NCBI GenBank assembly: GCA_043746875.1
Contig: JAYTQE010000046.1
Span: forward strand, 1-50,422
From: Minisyncoccota bacterium
GTDB lineage: Bacteria; Patescibacteriota; Minisyncoccia; Phycocordibacterales; UBA9973
Direction: 5' to 3'
Length of the DNA: 50,422 bases
In this document: piece by piece, positions 25,963 through 38,353 of the stretch
Layout: every line of letters starts with the position of its first letter
Position numbering within the stretch: position 1 is the first letter of the stretch
Notes under the pieces: generated by a model
Told to the model about the DNA's origin: nothing
What the model saw: only the letters and a program-made list of their open reading frames with translations
Databases searched by the model: none
Made by a program: the position numbers and the translations under genes

Positions 25963-28104
25963 TTATGTTCGTGATTTTATGATAGTATCAGCAACGTTTT
26001 GAGGGACTATATCGTAACGTAAAAATTCCATTGTAAAACCTGCTCTACCTTCAGTCATTGAACGAAGATTTGTCATATATCCAAACATTTCTGAAAGTGG
26101 TACAACTGCATTTACAGCTTGATTCATACCACGAGTTTCCATACCTTCAATAAGTCCGCGACGAGACGATAATGAACCTGTTACGTCTCCCATAAATTTG
26201 TCAGGAGTTACAACCTCTACTTTCATCATAGGCTCTAAGATAACAGGCTTTGCAGATCTACATGCCTCTTGAACGGCCATACTTGCTGCTATTTTAAAAG
26301 CCATTTCATTTGAATCAACTTCGTGAAAAGATCCATCGTATAAATCAACAGAAACATTTTCCATACGAAAACCTGCTAATACACCTCTATCTAATCCTTC
26401 TTTTAATCCTTTTTCAATTGGCACTATAAATTCTCCCGGAATTGCTCCTCCTTTAATATTGTTTATAAATTCAAAACCATTTGATCTTTTAGTATTTTTA
26501 GGTAAATCTTTTGGATCTACACTTTGATCCATAGGTTTAATATTAATCTTAACGTGGCCATAGTTACCTTTTCCTCCTGATTGTTTAATATATTTACCTT
26601 CAGATGATGCATTTGTAGTAATAGTTTCTCTATACGCCACTTGAGGTTTTCCAACATTTGCTTCAACATTAAACTCTCTTTTCATACGATCAACAATAAT
26701 TTCTAAGTGAAGCTCTCCCATACCAGCAATAATTGTTTCTTCTGTTTCAGGATCGGTAGAAACTTTAAATGTTGGATCTTCGTCAGATAAACGATTTAAA
26801 GCTAAGCCCATTTTTTCTTGATCAGCTTTAGTTTTTGGTTCTATACGTAAAGTGATAACAGGTTCTGGGAATTTAATACGATCAAGAGTAATAGGTGTAG
26901 ACTCATTACAAAGAGTATCTGAAGTTTTTGTATCCTTAAGACCAACAGCTGCGGCAATTTCTCCAGCAAAAACCTTTTTAACTTCTTCACGTTGATCAGC
27001 TTGCATACGAACAATACGACTCATACGCTCTCTGTTTCCAGTACGAGGATTATAAATATATGAACCAGCCTCAACTGTTCCTGAATAAACTCTAAAAAAT
27101 ACCAATTGCCCAACAAAAGGATCTGCCATAGATTTAAATGCAAGTGCTGCAAATGGAGCATTGTCATCTGCAGGACAATCTATAATTTCTTCTGTATCTG
27201 GATTAATCCCTTTTGCTACAGTAATTTCTGTTGGAGCAGGAAGATAATCAACAACAGCATCTAATACTAATTGGACACCTTTATTTTTAAGAGCACTACC
27301 TGCATATACAGGGAAAATCTGATTAGCGATAACAGCTTTACGTAGAGTTGCTTTAAGTTCCGCAATACTTGGCTCTTTACCTTCTAAGTAATTAGTCATA
27401 TGAGTTTCATCATTTTCAACTATACGCTCAACAAGTTCTGCATGATACTTATTTGCTTCAGCAAATAAGTTCTCTGGAATATCTTTTGTAATAACATTAC
27501 TTCCCATTTCTCCTTCAAAGTAATATGCTTTCATTTCTAAAAGATCAACAACCCCTTCATGGTTCTCTTCTAGTCCAATAGGAATTTGCATACGAACTGC
27601 TTTTTTAGACAATCGATCAAGAATTGTTTTATAAGAATGTTCAAAAGATGCTCCTGTACGATCAAGTTTATTCACAAAACAAATACGAGGAACATTAGCT
27701 TCATCTGCATAGCGCCAATTAGTCTCTGATTGAGGCTCTACCCCTGCTACTCCATCAAAAACAACAACTGCTCCATCTAGTACTCTAAGTGATCTCTTAA
27801 CTTCAACAGTAAAGTCTATGTGACCAGGTGTATCTATAATATTAAATCGAAAACTTTTAGATTTATCACCTTTTTCATATGTTGGAATCCATGCGCAAGT
27901 TACAGCTGCAGCTGTAATTGTAATCCCTCTTTCTCTTTCTTGTTCCATCCAGTCAGTTGTAGTTTCTCCATCATGAACTTCACCAATTTTGTGACTCATT
28001 CCAGTATAGAAAAGTACACGCTCTGATGTCGTAGTTTTTCCAGCATCAATATGAGCAATGATACCAAAATTTCGAACTTTATTTAGGGGGTACTCTCTTT
28101 CCAT
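25963..28104 (-). CDS. fusA: Elongation factor G
   Basis: [28 protein letters not shown]; 713 aa. Confidence 0.95.
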
Positions 28105-28202
28105 ATGTTTTATATTTATTTAAAATTAATTTCTTTATTATTAAAAGCCCCACAGGGGCTATAGTAACAAATACTATAAATGTAAGTTAGTAAAAATGCA
28201 AC

Positions 28203-28229
28203 AAAAAAATCCCTATAAGGGATTTTTTT
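28203..28229 (-). terminator. Terminator after rpsG
   Basis: atccct-ata-agggat flanked by an A-run and a T-run. Confidence 0.7.
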
Positions 28230-28233
28230 ATAT

Positions 28234-28707
28234 TTACCAAGCAAAGTGAGCGAATGCTTTGTTTGATTCAGCCATTTTGTGTGTATCTTTTTTCTTCTTT
28301 ACAGCGTTGCCTTCTCCTTTTGCTGCTAAAGTAAGTTCTTCAGCAAGAGCTACTGATGTTTTTGCGCCTTTACGAGATCTAGTGGCATCTATAATCCAAC
28401 GCATAGCAAGAGCTGTACGTCTTTCATTTCTAACCTCTCTTGGTACTTGATAATTTGCACCACCTATACGACGAGAACGAACTTCAACTAATGGTCCAGC
28501 ATTTTTTATTGCATTATCAAAAATTTCAATAGGGCTTTCTACTGTAGTATCTTTTGATTTAATTATCTCAAAAGCATCATAAACTATCTTACGAGCTGTA
28601 TTTTTTTTACCATCTTGCATTAGGCAATTAATAAATTTCTCAAGAGTTTTTGAATTAAACTTGATATCTTCACCTACTATATTTCTATTTGTTACTTTTC
28701 TTCTCAT
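28234..28707 (-). CDS. rpsG: 30S ribosomal protein S7
   Basis: KFIN.LM.DGKK..A..I.Y.AF...VE.RSRR.GGANYQVP. Confidence 0.95.
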   Translation of the reverse strand: MRRKVTNRNIVGEDIKFNSKTLEKFINCLMQDGKKNTARKIVYDAFEIIKSKDTTVESPIEIFDNAIKNAGPLVEVRSRRIGGANYQVPREVRNERRTALAMRWIIDATRSRKGAKTSVALAEELTLAAKGEGNAVKKKKDTHKMAESNKAFAHFAW

Positions 28708-28718
28708 ATATTTATATA

Positions 28719-29141
28719 TTATTTAGAAACTACTTTTGGACGCTTAGTACCGTACATTGATCTAGATTTTCGACGTTTATCAATACCTTGTGTATCAAGA
28801 ACACCTCTTACTATATGATAACGAACTCCAATCAAGTCTTTTACACGACCACCTCGAAGCATTACAACTGAGTGCTCTTGTAAATTGTGACCCTCACCTG
28901 GAATATATGCTGTTACTATATCTCCATTTGTAAGTCGTACACGAGCTATTTTACGAATAGCTGAGTTAGGTTTCTTAGGTGTAGTAGTAGAAACTTTTAC
29001 ACATACACCTCTTTTAAAAGGGGATGAGTAATAAACTGGACGATTATGAATAGCATTAAAACCACGGGAAAGTGTTACCGCTTTTGTTTTGCGCTTTACG
29101 CTCTTTCGAGGTTGTTTAACAAGCTGATTTATAGTTGACAT
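28719..29141 (-). CDS. rpsL: 30S ribosomal protein S12
   Basis: TINQL...[17 protein letters not shown]....[14 protein letters not shown]. Confidence 0.95.
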
Positions 29142-29190
29142 GTTCCGCTATGCTACTACAGTGGCGAAAAGAAATCAAGTGTTATTAAAA

Positions 29191-29814
29191 CTAAAATCTA
29201 ACTCCTGTAATAAAACTAAATAAAACAAAAGCAAAAGGTGCTACAATTTTCCATCCAAAAACAATAAAAAGTAGCAAAAGAGGCAAACTATACTCCTCTA
29301 TAAAAGATAATTTCTTATAAAACCTAACTGGTAAAATTGCTGATAAAAAACGAAATCCGTCCAATGGAGCAATAGGAATTGCATTAAAAATTGCTAGCAC
29401 TATATTTACTAATACAACAATACTTGTGATTTCTATAAATTTTTCTGGTGTATTTCCAAGTAATATAGCAATCCTAATAGCTAATCCAAAAAAAATAGCA
29501 ATAAGTAAATTAACAATAATTCCAGCAATAGATACTTTTGCTACACTTTTATTTCCATTTCTTAAATTATCTGGATTATAAGGTACAGGTTTTGCCCAAC
29601 CAAATATAAATCCAGCATTTGTGATAAGTAAAATTAAAGGCAAGATAATAGAACCAAATATATCTATGTGTTTTAACGGATTAAGAGTAATACGCCCCAA
29701 AATACGAGCAGTAGAATCTCCTTCTTTTTCTGCCATAATTCCATGAGCTACCTCATGAACAATAATTGAAAAAATAAGTATAAAAAAATAAAAAATAGAA
29801 ATTGTTGCTGTCAT
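29191..29814 (-). CDS. M50-family (site-2 protease-like) membrane metallopeptidase
   Basis: HEVAHGIMA (HExxH) in TM1 and NAIPIAPLDGFR (NxxPxxxLDG) in a later TM segment; polytopic. Confidence 0.75.
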   Translation of the reverse strand: MTATISIFYFFILIFSIIVHEVAHGIMAEKEGDSTARILGRITLNPLKHIDIFGSIILPLILLITNAGFIFGWAKPVPYNPDNLRNGNKSVAKVSIAGIIVNLLIAIFFGLAIRIAILLGNTPEKFIEITSIVVLVNIVLAIFNAIPIAPLDGFRFLSAILPVRFYKKLSFIEEYSLPLLLLFIVFGWKIVAPFAFVLFSFITGVRF

Positions 29815-29948
29815 GTATAAAATATTATTATATATCAGCTTAGCATAACTAGAAAATACTTAATACTAAAGAGCTACTAGATTTTTAATTGATTAATAGT
29901 GTTTATGATATATAAGGTATTTTATATGAAAATTTATATATTTAGATA

Positions 29949-29977
29949 TTGCAAGATCAACCCTTGTATGTTACTAT
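29949..29977 (+). promoter_or_regulatory. Candidate rpmB promoter
   Basis: TTGCAA (29949-29954), 17-nt spacer, TACTAT (29972-29977). The ATG lies only 9 nt further. Confidence 0.5.
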
Positions 29978-29986
29978 CTCGTAACT

Positions 29987-30232
29987 ATGGCAAAAGAATG
30001 CGCAATAACTAAAAAATCGTCACAAATGGCTGGAGGTTACTCTACTAAAGTTCGTGCTACCAAGTTTAACCCGACAGGTATGACTCGAAAATATGCTAAC
30101 TTACAAAAAAAGCGTATTTTTGTTCCAGAACTAAACAAAACTCTAGTTATAACTATCTCAACTCGAGGAATGAAAAATATTCAAAAAAATGGAGCTTATA
30201 AGACGCTCAAAGAGGCTGGTTTAGTTAAATAG
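29987..30232 (+). CDS. rpmB: 50S ribosomal protein L28
   Basis: MAKECAITKK....G..........R...NLQ.KR; 81 aa. Confidence 0.85.
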   Translation: MAKECAITKKSSQMAGGYSTKVRATKFNPTGMTRKYANLQKKRIFVPELNKTLVITISTRGMKNIQKNGAYKTLKEAGLVK

Positions 30233-30243
30233 ATCTAGCAAAT

Positions 30244-30271
30244 AAAAAACACCTTGCGCAGGTGTTTTTTT
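30244..30271. terminator. Bidirectional terminator (rpmB / RT operon)
   Basis: acacct-tgcgc-aggtgt flanked by an A-run and a T-run. Confidence 0.8.
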
Positions 30272-30273
30272 AT

Positions 30274-31482
30274 TTACTTTACTATTTTATAGAAATGATC
30301 AAAAGTTTTTTGAAATTCATCTACTAAATAAGTATTATTTGTAAACAACGTATCTTCATCATTTCTATAAAAACCAGAAGCAGTCCAATTATTTGTTCCA
30401 AAAACAACAATTTTATTATCAACAATCATTACATGATGATGTAAAAAGATACTAAAATCAGATCTTTGTTTAGATTTATCTATCAAATTATCTAACTTTG
30501 TATCAAATAATATTTGTAAATTATCTATTTTTTGTTCAAATTTTATTTTTTCTAATTCACTAATAACTGAATTTTCTTTATAAGCGACAAAATCATCTAC
30601 TATTAAATTAATAGAGACTCCTGTTTTAGCTTTTTTAATTAAAATATTAGCAATATCTTTATCTGTAAATTGCCACATAAGTATATTAATATTATTTTTT
30701 GAAGAATCTATTATTTCAATAATTTTTTCTTTACTAGAATTCATATTTAGTCCTGGTGACATCCAAATATCTAGATAACTATCTGTATATTTAATATGCT
30801 TAAGCCATGGATTGTAAATTGGGTTTTTTAACTTTTTTGTTCCATAAAAATTATTTTTTAAAAAATCAAATTCTTTGACATAAGATTCTATAATATCAAC
30901 ATCTTTTGTTACTAAATAAAAACTTTGTTCATAAAGTTCACCTTTGTCTGTATAATTTATAGAACCTGTTATCATTTGTTGATTGTCTAGACCTTTATCA
31001 ATTATTAATAATTTATGATGCATATACTCTGCATTTTTATTATTTTGAGGATCAAAAAAGCCTGTATCTATCCGGACAATATCCTTAGGCAATTTTATAA
31101 AAAAAGCATCGTGTTTTAACTTACGAGAATAATCCAAAACCAGTGTAACCTTTACCCCTCTTTCTGATGCCCTATAAATAGCATCTCTTATTTTATAAGA
31201 ATAAAAAGAAAACATAACTATATCTATCGTTGACTTAGCACTATCTATCATCTCAACAATATTATTTAAATATTTTTTATCTTCAAGTTCATTATTAAAA
31301 AAAATCTTTGTATCCATTGGTGTATTTTTATAAACAACAACTTGTGGAGTAGCTACAGTAAACCTTAAGTTAAAATCAACTTCTTTGAGATACAGGTATG
31401 AAATATATTTAGTGATAAGTATAAAAAAAATACCTAATACAAAATATATTATTATATAATTATATTTTTTTAATATTTTCAT
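30274..31482 (-). CDS. Membrane-anchored phospholipase D superfamily protein with two HKD-type motifs (last gene of RT operon)
   Basis: N-terminal TM helix YIIIYFVLGIFFILI. Motif 1 is HHKLLIID...GSINYT (canonical HxKxxxxD...GSxN). Motif 2 is HHHVMIVD...GTNNWT (His at the Lys position). ATG 31482 is preferred (track TTG 31494) and overlaps the upstream gene by 23 nt. Confidence 0.75.
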   Translation of the reverse strand: MKILKKYNYIIIYFVLGIFFILITKYISYLYLKEVDFNLRFTVATPQVVVYKNTPMDTKIFFNNELEDKKYLNNIVEMIDSAKSTIDIVMFSFYSYKIRDAIYRASERGVKVTLVLDYSRKLKHDAFFIKLPKDIVRIDTGFFDPQNNKNAEYMHHKLLIIDKGLDNQQMITGSINYTDKGELYEQSFYLVTKDVDIIESYVKEFDFLKNNFYGTKKLKNPIYNPWLKHIKYTDSYLDIWMSPGLNMNSSKEKIIEIIDSSKNNINILMWQFTDKDIANILIKKAKTGVSINLIVDDFVAYKENSVISELEKIKFEQKIDNLQILFDTKLDNLIDKSKQRSDFSIFLHHHVMIVDNKIVVFGTNNWTASGFYRNDEDTLFTNNTYLVDEFQKTFDHFYKIVK

Positions 31483-33184
31483 TTTTGATTTCAAAAATAG
31501 AGGTGTAAGCTAATAAATTATTATTATTTCTTGCAAATAATATAATCGTAGAGTCTTTTAAATTTTTATCTAAATAAGATATCATTTCTTTTATTTCTTT
31601 ATAATTAATATCTATCCAGATATTATCTATAATAATAATACTTGGTTTATTCAATAAACAATAGGCTATCTGAGCAGTAAATAATAATGTTTGATTATCA
31701 ATCAATGTGTACAAATTTTCTCCTGAGAATTTTTTTCCGGATAAAAGAGGTTTAAGTAATGGGTATTGTTCTATAAGATTGACAATTTTATCTATATCTT
31801 GTGTATTTATATCTTCTTTGTCTTTATTAAGAATAATCTCTCCTATTGTTTTGCTCGATGAAAATTTTGGAACAAAAAAGTATTTGGACTGAAAGATATC
31901 AGACCAGTTATTATAGGTGAATCTAATTTTATCTATTTTGACCACCCAGCTATGTCTAGAGAAAAAACCATTACCTGAAAATAACCTTGCCAAAGAGGTT
32001 TTGCCTGCAAACTTTTCTCCAAAAAAAAGAATTCTCTCTTTTTTATTGAAATCTATAGATATTTTTTTGAAGTAATTCCCATGTTCATGAATCTTTACCT
32101 TATTTGATCTAAAAGATATTTTTCCCCAGTCTTTATTAAATGGTTCTAATTTTTTTATCCCATATTTAGGTATACAAGATCTTAATCCCAGTTTAAGTGG
32201 AATATAATAAAGTCCAACCCTAATGCTCAAATAGAAAATTCTAAGCATATATAAGTAAAAAAATCCTTTTAATAAAGATAAATTTTGAGATACTGCACTT
32301 ATATCTATTTTTTTATTTTTAGATAATAAGAAAAATATCGACAAAACAATAGCAAAAACAATAGTTGCGGCTCTACCAGAGAACCTCAACCAAACGTCTC
32401 TTCTTATTCTGAAGAAAGTATCAACATTTACTATGTTTTTAAGTTTCTCATTTATTTTTTTAAATTCTGAAAAATTTTTTAATGAATCAAAATCAAATAT
32501 AGATCTAGAAATGTGCTTAAAAATAGCAGAATAAGACGACACCTCTTTAGATATAAGATATTTTGATACTAAATAAGAAGCCATCATAAAAGCCAAACTT
32601 CCAAACAATATAATGGGAATATACAGTAGAAATTCTAAACCTAGAAATAAAGCAATAATGGTTAGAATAGAAAATGACAAAATAAAATATACAAAACCAA
32701 CGATAGAGTTATCAAGCCCCATTGATACAAGTGATAAACTATATGATATTTTAGTAAAAAAACCGGCCCTATTTTCATAATCTGCTTCTGCTATATTTTT
32801 ATCAAAAAATGTAGCAAATAAATCAGCTCTTAATTTATTAATGAATGTTAAAACTAGAAGTCTCTCATATTTAATAGATAAAAATAGTCCTCCTATATAA
32901 AAACATGCAATTGATAAAACTATCATAGGCATAGTCAATCTGTATCCTAGAATAAATAATAGGTAATCAGAAGATATATTTTTTATTGCAAAAAATAACG
33001 ATGCCTCAATTAATCCTTGAATAATTATAAAAAAAATAGCTAGACCGATAATCTTTTTAGTTTTTTTTATAAATCTTTTTATATAATCAATTCTTTTTTG
33101 TTTATCTGTATCAAAATCTTCAATTGATTGTTTTATTTCTATTCTTTTTTTATAAAGCAAAAATTGCTCTCTATCTTTATTCAT
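31460..33184 (-). CDS. ABC-exporter-like membrane protein with degenerate nucleotide-binding domain
   Basis: About six hydrophobic segments are followed by an NBD. Walker A is intact (GEKFAGKTS). The Q-loop Gln is absent, the signature LSGGQ position reads IDNQT, Walker B is IIIIDN (no catalytic Glu), and the H-loop position reads FARN. Confidence 0.7.
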   Translation of the reverse strand: MNKDREQFLLYKKRIEIKQSIEDFDTDKQKRIDYIKRFIKKTKKIIGLAIFFIIIQGLIEASLFFAIKNISSDYLLFILGYRLTMPMIVLSIACFYIGGLFLSIKYERLLVLTFINKLRADLFATFFDKNIAEADYENRAGFFTKISYSLSLVSMGLDNSIVGFVYFILSFSILTIIALFLGLEFLLYIPIILFGSLAFMMASYLVSKYLISKEVSSYSAIFKHISRSIFDFDSLKNFSEFKKINEKLKNIVNVDTFFRIRRDVWLRFSGRAATIVFAIVLSIFFLLSKNKKIDISAVSQNLSLLKGFFYLYMLRIFYLSIRVGLYYIPLKLGLRSCIPKYGIKKLEPFNKDWGKISFRSNKVKIHEHGNYFKKISIDFNKKERILFFGEKFAGKTSLARLFSGNGFFSRHSWVVKIDKIRFTYNNWSDIFQSKYFFVPKFSSSKTIGEIILNKDKEDINTQDIDKIVNLIEQYPLLKPLLSGKKFSGENLYTLIDNQTLLFTAQIAYCLLNKPSIIIIDNIWIDINYKEIKEMISYLDKNLKDSTIILFARNNNNLLAYTSIFEIKNENIKKI

Positions 33185-33192
33185 AACAATAC

Positions 33193-34404
33193 TTACTTTT
33201 TAAATTTTTTATTATAATGATTATATAATGAATCTATTTTATTATACCTAAATAATTTCTCTGTTTCTCTTCTATTTTTTTCTGAATATTTATCAAAAAA
33301 ATATTTAGTTATTATTCTATAAAATTTTTCAGAAAAATTTAATATTTGATTATCGTCATCTATTAATTTTTTTTGTTCTATAATTTGCTTAAACTGTATA
33401 AAAATACTATTATAATTACTTTCAAAATTAAGGCTAAAATGCTTCTTTTTTCTTAACTTATTACTACCTGGATATCTATATAATGTTTTTTTAAGAGAAC
33501 TTATAATTTTAATGAGAGAATTTTCATTTACGCCTATTTTATTATTTTTAAATCTATAACCTAAAAAAACAAAAGGTTCTTTATCTGATATAACCTTTAA
33601 TTTATTTTTATTAAGAATTAGTTTTTTTTCTTTTATCATTTTACTTAAGGTTTTTTGTAGACTCAAAATCTTATTTTTATCTTTATCAAAAGCAATCATA
33701 TCGTCTCCTACTCTCCGATAAAAATCAACATACTTCCCTGCTATTTTATCAAAATCATCCATAAATAAATTTGATAATAAGCCAGAGATAGGAGTTCCTG
33801 TCATTAAACCTTTATTGATTTTTATTAATTTACCATTTTCAAAATATGAAGATTTGATAAAAATTTCAATCAAATTTTTAGTTTTTTGATCTAAACAAAT
33901 TTTATCTAAACTAGATATAAGTAATTCATGATCAATAGAATCTGTATAATCTGAAAGGTCTGCTACCAATATGTGATTGGATCCATAAAACCTTTTATAC
34001 CTACGAATAACACTTCTAGATGCATAATAAGCTGGGTGAGACTTTCTGTATGAATACAAAAAATCAGATAAATATTCATCAAAAAATGGACTTACTACTC
34101 TATATATAGCCTCTGCTCTTATTCTATCTTTTATAGAAAAAATATATATGGATCTATATTTGCCAGTTTTTTTGGGAATCAAAATTTTAAATGGAGGATT
34201 AGTTGGTTTTAAGTTTTTTATTTCCTCTTCGACAATTTTTATTATTTCTTTTGAGGAATAATTTATATTGTTTATTGAAACACCGTCTACTCCTTGTAAT
34301 GTACTTGATTTAGATTCTTCATCAACCTTTTTTAAAAGTTCAAAATATGCACTGACTATGTTGTCATGATCTAGTATTTTATCAAAAAGGTTATTCTCTA
34401 GCAT
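33193..34404 (-). CDS. Reverse transcriptase (stand-alone RT domain plus ~100-aa helical C-terminus)
   Basis: The RT motif series is present in order: LIPKKTGKYRSIY (1), SIKDRIRAEAIY (2), SYRKSHPAYYA (3), ILVADLSDYTDSI (A), GLMTGTPISGLLSNLFM (B), YRRVGDDMIAF (C), LNKNKLKV (D), FVFLGYRF (E). Confidence 0.85.
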   Translation of the reverse strand: MLENNLFDKILDHDNIVSAYFELLKKVDEESKSSTLQGVDGVSINNINYSSKEIIKIVEEEIKNLKPTNPPFKILIPKKTGKYRSIYIFSIKDRIRAEAIYRVVSPFFDEYLSDFLYSYRKSHPAYYASRSVIRRYKRFYGSNHILVADLSDYTDSIDHELLISSLDKICLDQKTKNLIEIFIKSSYFENGKLIKINKGLMTGTPISGLLSNLFMDDFDKIAGKYVDFYRRVGDDMIAFDKDKNKILSLQKTLSKMIKEKKLILNKNKLKVISDKEPFVFLGYRFKNNKIGVNENSLIKIISSLKKTLYRYPGSNKLRKKKHFSLNFESNYNSIFIQFKQIIEQKKLIDDDNQILNFSEKFYRIITKYFFDKYSEKNRRETEKLFRYNKIDSLYNHYNKKFKK

Positions 34405-34411
34405 ATATACT

Positions 34412-34622
34412 TATAGTACGATCCGAGCATAATAGATACCAAGCGGCCTATTATAAATTGAATAAAATTTTCAGTCGGAAGCGATCCCCGCAAGGGGGTC
34501 GTGGAGGACTGATGCCTTTTAGATGAATTATTTCACCCAAATTGTTGGTATTAGGCAACTATAAAAATTTGGGCCCATAATTATTAATACTCACTTAAAA
34601 GTGTTTCTCTGATCGTACTATA
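34412..34622 (-). ncRNA. Candidate RT-associated structured ncRNA (retron msr/msd-like or DRT-type template RNA)
   Basis: Perfect 12-bp inverted repeat tatagtacgatc (34412-34423) / gatcgtactata (34611-34622) encloses 187 nt with hairpins at 34536-34573 and 34471-34512. It ends 7 nt before the RT ATG. A minus-strand TATAAT at 34647-34642 lies upstream. Stops occur in all frames. Confidence 0.5.
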
Positions 34623-34653
34623 AATATACAGCACTGTTTGATTATACTATATA

Positions 34654-35520
34654 TCAATTACTTTTATACCATTTTAGTCCGTCAGTATAAAATGAGGTTG
34701 TTCCTTTTTCTATTGTTGAAATTATGGGAATATTAAGAGATTTTAATCTTTCTATAATTTCTATATTTGGATGACCATAATTATTCTTGACTCCAGCTGA
34801 TATCAAAACTAAATTAGGAGATACACTTTTTAAAAATTCCAAACTAGATCCAGTTTTTGACCCATGATGTGAAAGCTTCAAAATATCAACATTTATTTTT
34901 TTAGGAAAATTATTAACTAGAAAATGCTCAATATTCGCTGGTGAGTCCCCAGTAAAAAGAGCTGATCTTTGGCCAATATCTAATCTTCCAACAATTGAAG
35001 CATTATTTGTCTCCCAGTTGTCTGTTGGTCTATTTGGGAAAATTATAGAAAACTTTGTAGGAACTGATGTCGAATTATTCAAGGTTAAATCCATACCACT
35101 TCTTGCATAATATGAAGGTATATTTTTTTTATTAAGATCAAAAAAAAGATTTTTAAAAGTCTCTGTATCTGTCGATACTTGTGATGTAAGAAATAATCCT
35201 ACCTCATAATGTTTAAGAACAGATTTTATACCTCCTATATGGTCTGCGTCTGGATGTGTTGCAATAATTACCTCTATAAATCTATCTCCTTTTGGCATAA
35301 CACTAGTAAGACCTGAAAGAACCTTTGAATCTTTACCTGCATCAATAAGTAATTGAACACCATTTGATGATTGAATTAAAAAACTATCACCCTGCCCTAC
35401 ATCAATCATAGAGAATCCAGAATTATTTTCATTTTTGCTAGATCCAAAAAATAAAAATACTAAAATTAGAATACTTAAAAATAAACTAAGTATAATCAAA
35501 TTTCTAATCTTTCTATCCAT
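34654..35520 (-). CDS. ComEC C-terminal-type metallo-beta-lactamase-fold protein with N-terminal membrane anchor
   Basis: IDVGQGDS, HPDADHIGG, LSHHGS, NNYGHP motifs are typical of the ComEC/Rec2 MBL domain. N-terminal TM helix LIILSLFLSILILVFLFF. Confidence 0.75.
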   Translation of the reverse strand: MDRKIRNLIILSLFLSILILVFLFFGSSKNENNSGFSMIDVGQGDSFLIQSSNGVQLLIDAGKDSKVLSGLTSVMPKGDRFIEVIIATHPDADHIGGIKSVLKHYEVGLFLTSQVSTDTETFKNLFFDLNKKNIPSYYARSGMDLTLNNSTSVPTKFSIIFPNRPTDNWETNNASIVGRLDIGQRSALFTGDSPANIEHFLVNNFPKKINVDILKLSHHGSKTGSSLEFLKSVSPNLVLISAGVKNNYGHPNIEIIERLKSLNIPIISTIEKGTTSFYTDGLKWYKSN

Positions 35521-35566
35521 AAATAAATTTTATACTAAATTAATAATAAATCAGATCTTATAAAGA

Positions 35567-35575
35567 TGCTATAAT
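35567..35575 (+). promoter_or_regulatory. Extended -10 box (TGcTATAAT) 6 nt upstream of the sod ATG
   Basis: Direct reading; implies a leaderless or near-leaderless mRNA. Confidence 0.45.
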
Positions 35576-35581
35576 GAAAAC

Positions 35582-36175
35582 ATGTTTACAGAACAAAAAT
35601 TTGAAATACCGAAACTTGTCGGTATAAGTGAGAAAACAATAGAAGAACACTTGAAGTTATATGCTGGTTATATAAAAAATGCGAACATGATTCTTGAATT
35701 ACTAGAAAAAGGATCGTGGGAAGGTGAAGGTGGTATCTATGCGAGAAACGAATTAAATCGTCGTTTTAGTTTCGAATACAATGGTATGCGCAACCATGAA
35801 ATTTATTTTTCTTCTTTAGAAGAAGGACCTAAAGATCTCAATCCAGAAAGTGAATTAGGTAAAACATTACTAGGACTTTTTGGTAATTATGAAAACTTTG
35901 TACAAAAATTTACGAGCATAGCTCTTACTCGTGGAATTGGATGGGCAATATTATGGTATGATAAAAAAAATAACAAAATACTTACTTCTTGGATAGATGA
36001 ACAACACTTAGGTCAATTAAATGGTTGCAAAATGATACTCGCACTTGATATGTGGGAACATTCATTTGTGGCTGATTACCAATCAAGCGGTAAAAAAGTA
36101 TATGTTGAAGATTTTTTCAAAAATTTGAATTGGTCTGTATGCGAAAAGTATTTCTCAGATGCGCAAAATAAGTAA
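35582..36175 (+). CDS. Fe/Mn superoxide dismutase family protein (divergent)
   Basis: Ligand contexts are conserved: EEHLKLYAGYIKNAN, NGMRNHEIYF, DMWEHSF. Confidence 0.7.
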   Translation: MFTEQKFEIPKLVGISEKTIEEHLKLYAGYIKNANMILELLEKGSWEGEGGIYARNELNRRFSFEYNGMRNHEIYFSSLEEGPKDLNPESELGKTLLGLFGNYENFVQKFTSIALTRGIGWAILWYDKKNNKILTSWIDEQHLGQLNGCKMILALDMWEHSFVADYQSSGKKVYVEDFFKNLNWSVCEKYFSDAQNK

Positions 36176-37598
36176 TAATTTCTCTTTTATAAATTAGTAC
36201 AAATAACACACTGTAGATACCTAGGACCCCGAATCCACTCAGATTCGGAGTTTGCCATTGGGGTAATTTCCCAAAAAATGTCAGAACATTGATTGTGAAA
36301 CCTCCAACAAATGATGTTAGTGTTCCAAAAAAATTAGTTAAAAGTGTTATAGGTGAAAATACTACAACAGCAAGTCCTCCCAACATAAGTAATGGAATTA
36401 TTGGAACTAAGAACATATTTGCAATAGGTGAAACGATTGGAAACAATCCTGAGAAATACATCAAGTATGGCAACATAAATATTGGTAGACCGAAAGATAA
36501 AATACTTAGCTCACGAAAGTTAACCTTCCAATTTGGAATCCAAATTAATTTCTCTTTGAGAATTGGAAGTATAGTGATAATGAACAATGTTGCTAGAAAT
36601 GATAGATGAAATCCTGGATCGCTAAATATTGCCTTTGGCATTGTCATAAAGAAAAATAAAAATGCGAACAATAATGCTCGGAAAACATTATAAGTACGGA
36701 GAGTTGCTGTAGCTAGAAGTGCAATAGAACCCATTATTCCTGCTCTAACTGCTGCTATACCTGCACCACTAACAAGTACTAATGAAAATATCCCAAAAAA
36801 TATCAAAATGTTACGTACCTTAAATTGTGCTCTGCGCAAAAGTATCCCGATAAATGTCGCTAAGACTGTGATGTTGTAGCCAGAGAGTACTAGGGTGTGA
36901 AGTGTACCTGTTACTCTGAAAATATCTGACAAATATTTTGGAATACCTCCTTGAAAGCCAACCAACATACCACTAACTATTCCATCAACTGGGAAAGATA
37001 TATTTTTCGACAATTGTCTTGCAATCCATGAGCGAGTAATAGTGGCATATCTAACAACATAATTCCTAATCTCACCATTCTTTAGGCCTTGCCTAAAGAA
37101 TTCAATATTTGCTATTTGAGCATTGTTTACTATAGCGTCTATACCTTTACTACTTAAATATTGTTTATATGGAAATATTCTACCCGAATCAGTTACAAAG
37201 TTTTCTGGCTCTTTTACTTGTCCGCGAAATGATATATAGTCTCCCGGTAATATATTGTTAATATGAGATAATTCAACCTGGACTTTACCATCAGAATTAT
37301 CTAATTTAACTATAAGTAATGTCTTATCTAATCTTTCATCTATACTTTGAACTATACCGCTAAGTGCTCTATTGCCTATTTCTATTTCATGAACAGGCAT
37401 CATCCATATTCTTAAAGCTCCAAGTATTACTGTTAATGTTAAAATTAAACCTATTAATATTCCTTTGAAGTTTCTAAAAATTAAACAAAAAAATACTCCC
37501 CAAAGAATACTCAAAAAATAAATTTCAGTAAGACTAAAGTTTAACTGATAATAAAATGTTGAACCTATAATCAAGCTAATACAAAACAGTACGAGCAT
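36117..37598 (-). CDS. comEC: ComEC/Rec2 membrane channel part (DUF4131-like OB region plus competence domain), no MBL domain
   Basis: 493 aa, polytopic. A soluble insert follows the first TM segments, then a dense TM bundle typical of the ComEC competence domain. Confidence 0.7.
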   Translation of the reverse strand: MLVLFCISLIIGSTFYYQLNFSLTEIYFLSILWGVFFCLIFRNFKGILIGLILTLTVILGALRIWMMPVHEIEIGNRALSGIVQSIDERLDKTLLIVKLDNSDGKVQVELSHINNILPGDYISFRGQVKEPENFVTDSGRIFPYKQYLSSKGIDAIVNNAQIANIEFFRQGLKNGEIRNYVVRYATITRSWIARQLSKNISFPVDGIVSGMLVGFQGGIPKYLSDIFRVTGTLHTLVLSGYNITVLATFIGILLRRAQFKVRNILIFFGIFSLVLVSGAGIAAVRAGIMGSIALLATATLRTYNVFRALLFAFLFFFMTMPKAIFSDPGFHLSFLATLFIITILPILKEKLIWIPNWKVNFRELSILSFGLPIFMLPYLMYFSGLFPIVSPIANMFLVPIIPLLMLGGLAVVVFSPITLLTNFFGTLTSFVGGFTINVLTFFGKLPQWQTPNLSGFGVLGIYSVLFVLIYKREIITYFAHLRNTFRIQTNSNF

Positions 37599-37618
37599 AT
37601 ATTATATTTTATCATTTT

Positions 37619-38353
37619 TTATAGCAAAGTTTTAAGTGTATAATCTTGAACTAAACTAATTTCTTCATCTTTTGAAAAAACCTTTTTGTATTTGGCACCT
37701 TTTGTTCCCTTCACACGCTTCTCACAAGCAGCCCAAGTTTTGTCAGTATGAACCTTGCCATCAACGAGTGAGATATATGAATATGCCGGAGTATTATTTT
37801 TATTTTTCTTTGGTTTCGTTTCTTTGAGTGTTGTCCCGATTTCTTCTAGAAATTTATCATAATCTTTTTGTGCTCCCTTAAAGTGGTTAGTTTTTTCACC
37901 AAGAGCTGCAGCGACTGCAAGCTCATCACAGCGTTCGTTGTAGAGATCTCCTGCATGACCTGAAACTTTAGTAATAGTTAATCTATCTTTGTACTCTTTT
38001 AATAAGACTAGTAATTCTTGCCACATAATTTTATTTTCAACTGGAGTTTTGTTCATAGTAATCCATCCTTTTTTTTCCCATCCCCAAACCCAAGAATTTG
38101 ATCCATTTACAACATAAGCACTATCAGAAAATACTGTTACAGAACCTTTATATTTACGAGATGAAGTATCAGAAAGTACCGATATAACCGCTTGAAGCTC
38201 CATTTGATTGTTTGTTGCTTTTTTTTTACTTCCAGTAATTTCCATAACAAAATCATCTACGAGAATAACCGCTCCCCACCCACCTAAGCCCGGATTACCT
38301 CGAGATGCTCCATCTGTATATATAACTAATCTTTTTATATTATTTTTTTTCAT
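37619..38353 (-). CDS. rnhA: Ribonuclease HI with C-terminal hybrid-binding-like domain
   Basis: RNase H catalytic contexts are YTDGASRGNPG, NNQMELQA, FSDSAYV, NERCDELA. The C-terminal ~50 aa (YSYISLVDGKVHTDKTWAACEKRVKGTKGAKYKKVFSKDEE) resemble the RNase H1 HBD / caulimovirus-VI-type fold signature. Confidence 0.8.
   Translation of the reverse strand: MKKNNIKRLVIYTDGASRGNPGLGGWGAVILVDDFVMEITGSKKKATNNQMELQAVISVLSDTSSRKYKGSVTVFSDSAYVVNGSNSWVWGWEKKGWITMNKTPVENKIMWQELLVLLKEYKDRLTITKVSGHAGDLYNERCDELAVAAALGEKTNHFKGAQKDYDKFLEEIGTTLKETKPKKNKNNTPAYSYISLVDGKVHTDKTWAACEKRVKGTKGAKYKKVFSKDEEISLVQDYTLKTLL

Follow-up and report, generated by a model that had tools for sequence, protein, structure and literature searches.

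The window examined here, a stretch of 50,422 nt from contig JAYTQE010000046.1 of a Minisyncoccota bacterium, carries a cassette of three tightly packed minus-strand genes coding, in order, for a free-standing reverse transcriptase (RT), a 574-residue protein resembling an ATP-binding cassette (ABC) exporter, and a membrane-anchored member of the phospholipase D (PLD) family, with a structured non-coding RNA (ncRNA) upstream of the RT gene. Profile alignment and structural modelling confirmed that the second of these proteins has the complete predicted fold of a type I (ABCB/MsbA-like) ABC half-exporter, and the aligned sequences indicated that its whole family is deficient in the residues required for ATP hydrolysis by such proteins. 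With a confidence somewhat better than even, we infer that the ABC-like protein functions as a non-pumping membrane scaffold or transducer in a four-part accessory module composed of the ncRNA, the RT, the ABC-like protein and the PLD protein.

The host genome is a low-GC assembly of 0.49 Mb, 94% complete and of the candidate phyla radiation (CPR)/Patescibacteria type, and the GC content of the cassette (0.20-0.25) compares with an average of ~0.30 for the window. Only 8 nt separate the RT stop codon from the start of the ABC-like gene, and the ATG of the PLD gene (31482) lies 23 nt inside the 3' end of the latter, thereby bearing out the arrangement of an RT upstream and a PLD downstream that had been proposed in a preliminary description made from the letters alone. 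The components of the cassette, and the principal elements of the ABC-like protein, are located as follows:

34401 to 34632, minus strand: structured ncRNA upstream of the RT, with a terminal stem of ~22-25 bp (minimum free energy z = -5.9)
33193 to 34404, minus strand: free-standing RT of 403 aa, UG26-like/group-II-intron-like (Pfam, PADLOC, NCBIfam)
31460 to 33184, minus strand: putative ABC-exporter-like pseudo-ATPase of 574 aa (open reading frame, family profile, AlphaFold2, Foldseek)
33059 to 33184, minus strand: basic N-terminal cytoplasmic extension, residues 1-42, with two helices (DSSP helices 2-21 and 28-41)
32174 to 33058, minus strand: six-helix transmembrane (TM) domain of type I exporter fold, residues 43-337 (hydropathy, profile, AlphaFold2, Foldseek)
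32390 to 32422, minus strand: signature of the family, D255-T-F-F-R-I-R-R-D-V-W265, where TM5 begins on the cytoplasmic side (residue conservation, n = 61)
31463 to 32122, minus strand: degenerate nucleotide-binding domain (NBD), residues 355-574 (hidden Markov model (HMM) and MAFFT alignments, AlphaFold2)
31997 to 32020, minus strand: intact Walker A motif, G389-EKFAGK-T396 (HMM alignment)
31868 to 31870, minus strand: P439 at the position of the Q-loop Gln (HMM alignment)
31685 to 31699, minus strand: D496-NQT-L500 at the position of the LSGGQ signature (HMM and MAFFT alignments)
31622 to 31639, minus strand: Walker B IIIID520, followed by N521 instead of the catalytic Glu (HMM alignment)
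31532 to 31534, minus strand: A551 at the position of the H-loop (switch) His (HMM alignment)
30274 to 31482, minus strand: membrane-anchored PLD-family protein with two HKD motifs and a predicted outward orientation, 402 aa when counted from the ATG (two PLDc_2 domains, TM helix)

The exporter fold and its ATPase motifs

The reading frame at 31460-33184 is a genuine one, and the membership of its product in the ABC superfamily became apparent through its relatives. The protein fell short of the Pfam gathering cut-offs for both ABC_tran (20.1 bits against 25) and ABC_membrane (13.6 against 28), and a phmmer search of the PDB with the single sequence returned no match, such matches being obtained with the family profile alone. 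An exhaustive HMMER search over 1.84 billion cluster representatives retrieved 136 hits, almost all ~570 aa in length and 78 with E<1e-30, and a profile built from 61 full-length members matched MsbA, ABCB1, TM287/288, BmrCD and PCAT1 in the PDB at E values of 4e-20 to 1e-16, with the TM domain and the NBD covered in separate aligned stretches. Hydropathy and an AlphaFold2 model built on the family alignment (predicted local distance difference test score (pLDDT) 91.3; predicted template modelling score 0.86) both gave six long TM helices followed by an NBD, and Foldseek overlaid the model on full-length MsbA, PglK and TAP chains with TM-scores of 0.70-0.76 and a probability of 1.0 at 10-16% identity. 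The type I half-exporter topology suggested in the preliminary description was thus well founded, as judged from the profile match (E ~1e-20), the pLDDT and the structural overlays taken together.

The family also exhibits conserved features of its own. D255, R259, R262, N116, R119, K145, Y148, G324, P329 and G333 are near-invariant, D255 and R262 being invariant and R259 present in 59/61 representatives; three of these residues belong to a family-specific motif, D[ST][YFH]FR[IV]RR[DE]xW, at the cytoplasmic start of TM5, while a DN.W.D motif stands where the Walker B Glu and the D-loop would be. The NBD carries a net charge of +10 in the window copy (family median +7), as against -5 for the NBD of the canonical exporter coded for by the same genome, and the 42-residue N-terminal extension has a family median net charge of +7.

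Motif positions were assigned from an HMM alignment to MsbA and a MAFFT alignment to that same canonical exporter. The earlier reading by eye of an intact Walker A motif (G389-EKFA-GKT396) agreed with the profile alignment, as did its claims that the Q-loop Gln is missing (P439 at the aligned position), that Asn replaces the catalytic Glu (N521 after IIIID520), that the D-loop is altered (W523-I-D525-I-N) and that the switch His is lost (A551). Two of its statements required amendment: the loss of the LSGGQ signature is real, but the stretch IDNQT was placed one residue away from the aligned D496-NQTL500, a shift that is immaterial; and Walker A, though kept, is not the only motif retained, the Walker B Asp being present both in this copy and in 56/61 representatives overall. 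A canonical Q-loop Gln, signature, catalytic Glu or H-loop His that by-eye alignment might have overlooked was not recovered by the profile alignment.

Equivalent losses were recorded throughout the 61 representatives. At the position of the catalytic Glu, that residue was found in two, with Asn in 34, His in 8, Pro in 6 and Ser in 5; the H-loop position held His in none, Ser in 40, Ala in 9 and Gly in 5; Pro occupied the Q-loop position in 31; and the SGG of the signature motif was found nowhere among the family members. A strict Walker A ([AG]xxxxGK[ST]) was present in 35 and absent from 26, GK[ST] occurring in 38, a result which implies that even nucleotide binding is dispensable for a large minority of the family. 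The same pattern was repeated in 26 proteins read from fetched loci, including a higher-GC family member (L061), and in a distant subfamily (~23% identical to the window protein) the Walker B Asp is followed by His, the H-loop position holds Ser and the signature is missing. On this sequence evidence, the motif losses are a property of the family as a whole and not of the window copy.

An internal control was provided by the only canonical type I half-exporter in the same genome, a 601-aa protein (G000:C16:234-2039, L070) that keeps GSGKST, the Q-loop Gln, VSGGERQ, FDEAT, SALD and AHR. Because this protein retains every motif, AT-rich drift is not the cause of their loss from the ABC-like protein. 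A functionless relic, whether a decaying transporter gene or an artefact of such drift, would account for the Pfam scores below gathering cut-offs, for the few split copies encountered (L056 ABC, L044 RT, L037 PLD) and for the ABC-like protein being the fastest-evolving of the three cassette proteins (mean identity 0.34). Full-length reading frames in ~78 clusters (E<1e-30), a model with a pLDDT of 91, invariant residues specific to the family, a shared pattern of losses in higher-GC members such as L061 and an intact canonical exporter in the same genome all count against such decay, which full-length conservation, the invariant residues and the canonical exporter already contradict, and which we consider scarcely credible.

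Hydrolysis by ABC proteins requires the Walker B Glu, the H-loop His and the signature motif of the partner subunit. From this enzymology it would follow that ATP is bound and yet barely hydrolysed, an expectation that cannot hold for the ~40% of representatives without a strict Walker A. The alternative of a working ATP-driven exporter would call either for non-canonical catalysis or for a heterodimer with the canonical half-transporter of the genome, the exported material being something connected with the RT or the PLD. Exporters built as heterodimers in which one site is degenerate are frequently encountered (L006 shows such a pair), the genome does have one canonical half-exporter, and the window copy retains both Walker A and the Walker B Asp; however, the family supplies neither the signature nor the catalytic Glu and His, leaving at most one half-crippled site, 26/61 representatives have no strict Walker A, and transfer of the cassette from one genome to another involves the whole unit, in which there is just one ABC-like gene. 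ATP-driven export is on these grounds very improbable, and a protein that does not pump remains the favoured reading.

Association with a reverse transcriptase, an RNA and a PLD protein

Genomic context was obtained for 35 loci spanning at least 12 clusters below 50% identity. A first metagenome scan with alignment A1 as query yielded no true relative; a scan with the motif D[ST]YFR[IV]RR[DE] gave 26 true family loci from 40 pattern hits. The RT gene stands directly upstream of the ABC-like gene in 25/25 loci whose contig reaches far enough, and the PLD gene directly downstream in 26/26 colinear loci, in which all three genes share one strand and mostly overlap. These colinear loci represent 11 clusters at 50% identity, among them that of the Walker-A-less L060 (cluster P0072) and that of the high-GC L061. 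A homolog 40% identical to the window protein (P0002) comes from Logan contigs on which the RT-ABC-PLD order recurs amid other flanking genes (trmD, one for a KH protein, and rpsP), and in a Candidatus Paceibacteria metagenome-assembled genome (MAG) the same trio lies between ribonucleotide reductase/DsbB and pilB/pilC.

In the distant subfamily around P0050 (four proteins, 6 loci) the ABC-like and PLD genes still overlap, and the RT gene is adjacent but divergently transcribed across a spacer of 390-470 nt in 6/6 loci (L073-L078, e.g. L076:3297-7881). The RTs concerned align over their full length with the window RT and have the same invariant residues. That the linkage has been kept despite this rearrangement is good evidence of a functional tie. 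Pairwise-identity matrices of the RT, ABC-like and PLD proteins correlate at r = 0.95-0.97 over 24 loci, values of a kind that shared ancestry inflates, and fit an inheritance of the three as a unit without swapping of partners. The possibility that homologs are ordinary transporters with no RT association was also considered: wherever the flanks could be read, the same RT and PLD genes adjoined, and at E<1e-30 no ABC-like family member was seen without these partners.

Additional neighbours were noted in parts of the family. A gene for a PrsW-family protease directly follows the PLD gene in L074-L078, loci which share synteny and are non-independent, while L073 ends at the PLD gene. A 584-aa reading frame behind the RT gene of L073 was considered as a second ABC-like protein and ruled out (hhalign probability 0.4%). 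In 12 loci of one clade (L038:5708-6292, L039:9023-9637, L045:3924-4520, L049:755-1348 and 8 more) the cassette is adjoined by the gene of a protein that Pfam does not match; it is ~195 aa long, less in L041 and L037, and bears an N-terminal TM helix together with an internal repeat (DYQxW...). The gene usually comes just after that of the PLD, and in two loci before the ncRNA; its product may be a clade-specific fifth component.

The RT was matched by Pfam RVT_1 (3e-23) and by the PADLOC generic RT (1.7e-42) and RT_UG26 (7e-39) models, and by the NCBIfam group II RT model at 3e-42 with a score of 145, below its cut-off of 300. UG26 was the best specific PADLOC model for 19/19 RTs (best E 6e-41), a moderate match of ~130 bits; the RT_UG17 model gave a weaker one (2.7e-29 over the full model length), and retron RT models scored only ~1e-11 to 1e-13, far less than the UG26, generic and group-II models (1e-39 to 1e-42). 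The motif A Asp and the R[VL]GDD of motif C are invariant in 24 loci, and the RT is apparently catalytically active as far as these residues indicate. Two classes of retroelement were considered. No group II intron RNA domain was found by Rfam within 30000-35000 at E<=1, a result which, in combination with the RT score below cut-off, speaks against a group II intron of the mobile kind; and a diversity-generating retroelement was rejected after a search that found no template/variable repeat pair in 28000-38000, just AT-rich low-complexity repeats.

The RNA at 34401-34632 (~230 nt) has a predicted minimum free energy of -76.2 kcal/mol, compared with -48.7 +/- 4.7 for shuffled sequences. It is closed by a terminal stem of 22-25 bp, and duplex folding locus by locus, applied to 260-nt windows of the upstream regions, gave equivalents of 16-26 bp in most of the other loci whose window reached far enough; the sequence of the stem differs between loci while its pairing is kept. 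RNAalifold predicted no pairs from a 23-sequence upstream alignment in which MAFFT had placed the arms of the terminal stem out of register, and Rfam contained no credible family match within 30000-35000. In most loci an RNA of ~230-300 nt precedes the RT gene (e.g. L039:4546-4805), with the conserved internal blocks ATTAAnAATTAAT and GCTAATnCC.

The PLD protein has two PLDc_2 domains (1.2e-39) and is NucT- and DrmC-like at the sequence level. Its first HKD motif is the canonical HxKxxxxD and its second HxHxxxxD, each in 24/24 full-length proteins (window 30274-31482 and homologs, e.g. L039:7685-8935), and the His and Asp residues of both motifs are invariant; the replacement of Lys by His in the second motif is, on the aligned sequences, a fixed asymmetric active site rather than a one-off substitution, and the enzyme is apparently active. 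An AlphaFold2 model (pLDDT 93.2) was closest in fold to the bacterial PLD 7e0m, to the PLD3/PLD4 single-stranded DNA (ssDNA) exonucleases and to vaccinia F13, PLD3 and PLD4 being type II-anchored lumenal enzymes. An N-terminal TM helix is common to all 24 full-length homologs. In 23 of these its N side is rich in K/R, with 4-9 such residues as against 1-4 on the C side, so that by the positive-inside rule the catalytic domain is predicted to face outward.

The presence of this enzyme bears on the notion that the ABC-like protein is itself the effector, namely a CFTR-like ligand-gated conduit which an RT-ncRNA or complementary DNA (cDNA) signal would open, with collapse of the membrane potential and abortive infection as the outcome. 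Some retrons have effectors with two TM helices, the exporter fold with its central cavity is retained here at high confidence, and the Walker A and Walker B Asp residues kept in most members could form the site of a gating ligand. The closest characterised RT systems likewise use membrane effectors, as with the SLATT protein of defence-associated reverse transcriptase (DRT) system DRT10 (bioRxiv 10.64898/2026.04.29.721553). Such a pore would, however, leave no role for a strictly co-inherited PLD protein with intact catalytic residues; gating by NBD dimerisation requires a signature motif that is absent here; and ~40% of clusters are without a strict Walker A. A gated pore is accordingly regarded as unlikely, and a scaffold or transducer acting in concert with the PLD protein is preferred.

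Distribution and genomic surroundings

The ABC-like family was found in 0/400 other sampled genomes of the same phylum and in 0/400 sampled genomes of the class holding the Paceibacteria MAG, and nothing was matched by tblastn among 50,697 phage records. The top hits outside the family in the 400 phylum genomes were considered as possible intermediates and ruled out, since they proved to be ordinary heterodimeric ABC exporters with intact motifs (L006). Two genomes of the same family (G284 and G256) and one of the same order (G178) keep the RNaseH-ComEC-(SOD)-MBL synteny that flanks the cassette, SOD and MBL denoting superoxide dismutase and metallo-β-lactamase genes, and past the MBL gene carry other genes at its place. 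Because these close relatives retain the flanking synteny without the cassette, the latter is accessory, and it is a rare module of patchy distribution.

Split genes were observed in three copies of the cassette, affecting the PLD gene in L037 (L037:3059-4321), the RT gene in L044 (L044:4796-5999) and the ABC-like gene in L056 (L056:536-1712). They are frameshifts, stops or assembly errors, as expected of an accessory module that is sometimes lost.

Competence or pilus genes, comprising those for a ComEC-type MBL protein, T2SSE/pilB-like ATPases, PilC and a prepilin, lie 1-3 genes from the cassette at a number of loci (window 34654-35520; L051-L055, e.g. L052:3408-4295; L035:8970-11938; L001:6895-7344) which are too few and too closely related to establish an association; in the window the MBL gene runs in the same direction as the cassette, in L051-L055 it is divergent. 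The ComEC of the window is split into a channel gene followed by a separate MBL gene (34654-37598), an arrangement conserved in same-family and same-order relatives (L067, L068 and L069) and, as judged from these sequences, a lineage trait rather than a local accident. In family-level relatives a SOD gene on the opposite strand stands between the two.

Proposed role and comparison with known systems

With one ABC-like gene per cassette, its product would be expected to form a homodimer, and since neither composite ATP site of such a dimer would be competent, no pumping should result. The basic cytoplasmic face made up of the N-terminal extension, the RxRR motif of the intracellular loop and the pseudo-NBD may dock the RT-ncRNA complex or its cDNA product, while the TM domain may pack against the single TM helix of the PLD protein, the catalytic domain of which would lie outside the membrane. 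By these means the dead exporter would couple cytoplasmic reverse transcription to an activity at or beyond the membrane, and where both Walker A and the Walker B Asp are kept (~57% of clusters, the window copy included) bound nucleotide would probably act as a ligand or regulator and not as fuel. The suggestion in the preliminary description of a sensor or effector scaffold rather than a transporter is a plausible one that fits the data, and, by analogy with all the characterised modules in which an ncRNA and an RT are joined by an effector (retrons, DRT2, DRT9 and DRT10), the module as a whole is most likely a conflict or anti-phage system.

A number of considerations weigh against this interpretation. 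Most family members keep Walker A and the Walker B Asp, which leaves room for a nucleotide-dependent step or for slow hydrolysis. The genomic contexts come from clusters reached via one peptide motif plus one extra subfamily, and for roughly one in four family representatives no relative of known context exceeds 30% identity. Physical contact of the ABC-like protein with the RT, the RNA or the PLD protein is a prediction, the positive-inside rule is the sole ground for the orientation of the PLD protein, and the defence label is applied by analogy only. An outward-facing PLD would in any case be an odd effector for an intracellular anti-phage response, and the flanks in the loci examined consist of housekeeping genes, among which integrases are absent and known defence genes are not enriched.

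Given an outward-facing PLD and recurrent competence and pilus neighbours, a role in nucleic-acid processing at the cell surface is a less likely alternative. In its most explicit form, the ABC-like dimer would be a passive or ligand-gated conduit handing ssDNA made by the RT, some other nucleic acid, or an RT-RNA-DNA signal across the membrane to an outward PLD exonuclease for trimming or release, possibly in connection with DNA uptake or scavenging by CPR episymbionts rather than with immunity. The predicted topology would suit such a conduit, since it puts the RT in the cytoplasm, the exporter fold within the membrane and, beyond it, a PLD of NucT- and PLD3/4-like nuclease affinities, as would the basic cytoplasmic face of the ABC-like protein and the ComEC-type MBL, pilB/pilC or pilin genes that neighbour the cassette in L035, L001, the L051-L055 clade and the window itself. 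No type I ABC exporter is known to move DNA; the ATPase appears dead, leaving translocation with no evident energy source; the competence-gene neighbours are few and non-independent, related genomes sharing synteny; and a rare accessory cassette is unlike a core scavenging function. As relayed in the DRT10 preprint, SLATT proteins have been suggested in the literature to act as membrane partners that export DNA made by an RT (Burroughs et al. 2015, cited in bioRxiv 10.64898/2026.04.29.721553), a point in favour of the conduit. On balance a conduit of this kind is distinctly unlikely; were it true, the module would exemplify reverse-transcription-coupled export or processing of nucleic acid at the surface of an episymbiotic CPR cell, and not a conventional intracellular abortive-infection effector.

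The preferred scaffold or transducer may be set against several known systems. With the type I (type IV fold) half-exporters MsbA, Sav1866, TM287/288, PglK and TAP the ABC-like protein shares an N-terminal elbow, six long TM helices that include intracellular coupling loops, and an NBD at the C terminus; its conserved family residues R119, K145 and Y148 are matched in the alignment to structural motifs in TM2 and TM3 of these exporters (the R of 'lR..lf'; the region 'sR..Y'). Unlike them, the family is without the catalytic Glu, H-loop His, LSGGQ and Q-loop Gln, Walker A having also gone in ~40%; its NBD is basic and not acidic, with D..FR.RR..W and DN.W.D motifs of its own; and its gene was never a stand-alone transporter gene, being always accompanied by RT and PLD genes in the loci examined. 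Lacking four defining catalytic features in sequence, the protein would not be classed as a functional ABC transporter.

The exporter fold serves ends other than primary active transport in CFTR, a channel, and in SUR1/2, regulators of a channel, in which nucleotide binding is regulatory. These proteins keep one consensus ATP site together with signature motifs, whereas here both sites of a homodimer would be degenerate, and no sequence relationship exists between them and the ABC-like family beyond that of the superfamily. The PLD protein shares the HKD phosphodiesterase fold with NucT/Nuc (NCBIfam NucT 7e-31, below cut-offs) and with PLD3/PLD4 (Foldseek E ~1e-19), and is inferred to resemble the latter in having a single N-terminal anchor with its catalytic domain on the non-cytoplasmic side; its second motif is HxH in 24/24 rather than HxK.

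The published partner of UG26 RTs is a YcjD/Vsr-like endonuclease, recorded for 9/35 UG26 members (Mestre et al. 2022, PMC9226505), as opposed to the ABC-like and PLD proteins found here, and that paper makes no mention of ABC, PLD or phospholipase. No description of a module combining an RT, an ABC-exporter-like protein and a PLD was found in PMC9226505, in a 2021 review of prokaryotic RTs (PMC8632793), in the DRT10 preprint or in full-text searches, which is not proof of its absence. That an RT product can act by way of a membrane partner has its characterised precedent in DRT10, which consists of an ncRNA, an RT and a SLATT protein (bioRxiv 10.64898/2026.04.29.721553; PMC12632851), with subtypes reported from Pseudomonadota, Bacteroidota and Bacillota and not from CPR (bioRxiv 10.64898/2026.04.29.721553). 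DRT10/UG17 and the present cassette each unite an ncRNA, a free-standing RT and a membrane protein in one module, but the DRT10 partner is a SLATT protein with two TM helices, in place of which a 574-aa ABC-exporter fold and a PLD are found here; Pfam and PADLOC scans of the cassette gave no SLATT hit. Moreover, the ncRNA of DRT10 stands upstream of the SLATT gene, and that of the cassette upstream of the RT gene.

A likeness in logic is seen with retron type I-A and Septu-like systems, which join an ncRNA and an RT to a P-loop protein of the ABC superfamily (PtuA) and a protein of a nuclease family (the HNH protein PtuB), and the long terminal inverted repeats that close the ncRNA upstream of the RT gene are a feature resembling retron a1/a2. 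PtuA is soluble and SMC/ABC-like, with no TM domain; the retron I-A nuclease is of the HNH and not the PLD family, and retron RT models score poorly on this RT (~1e-11). The module resembles retrons and DRTs in logic and, by the features examined, could be assigned to none of those systems that were tested.

To our knowledge, in all the well-studied bacterial RT systems the effector that accompanies the RT and its RNA is either soluble or a small membrane protein, in contrast to the full-size, motor-less ABC-exporter fold and predicted outward-facing enzyme that accompany them here. CPR bacteria have tiny genomes and few known defence systems. If the linkage is functional, the cassette would represent an RT-based accessory system in this group, a route for coupling cytoplasmic reverse transcription to the cell surface, and a new turn in the evolution of ABC exporters, towards a homodimeric pseudo-ATPase that serves as scaffold or gate; and the family, with or without Walker A and with the catalytic Glu replaced by Asn, His, Pro or Ser, would constitute a natural set of mutants of the exporter fold from which ATP hydrolysis has been subtracted.

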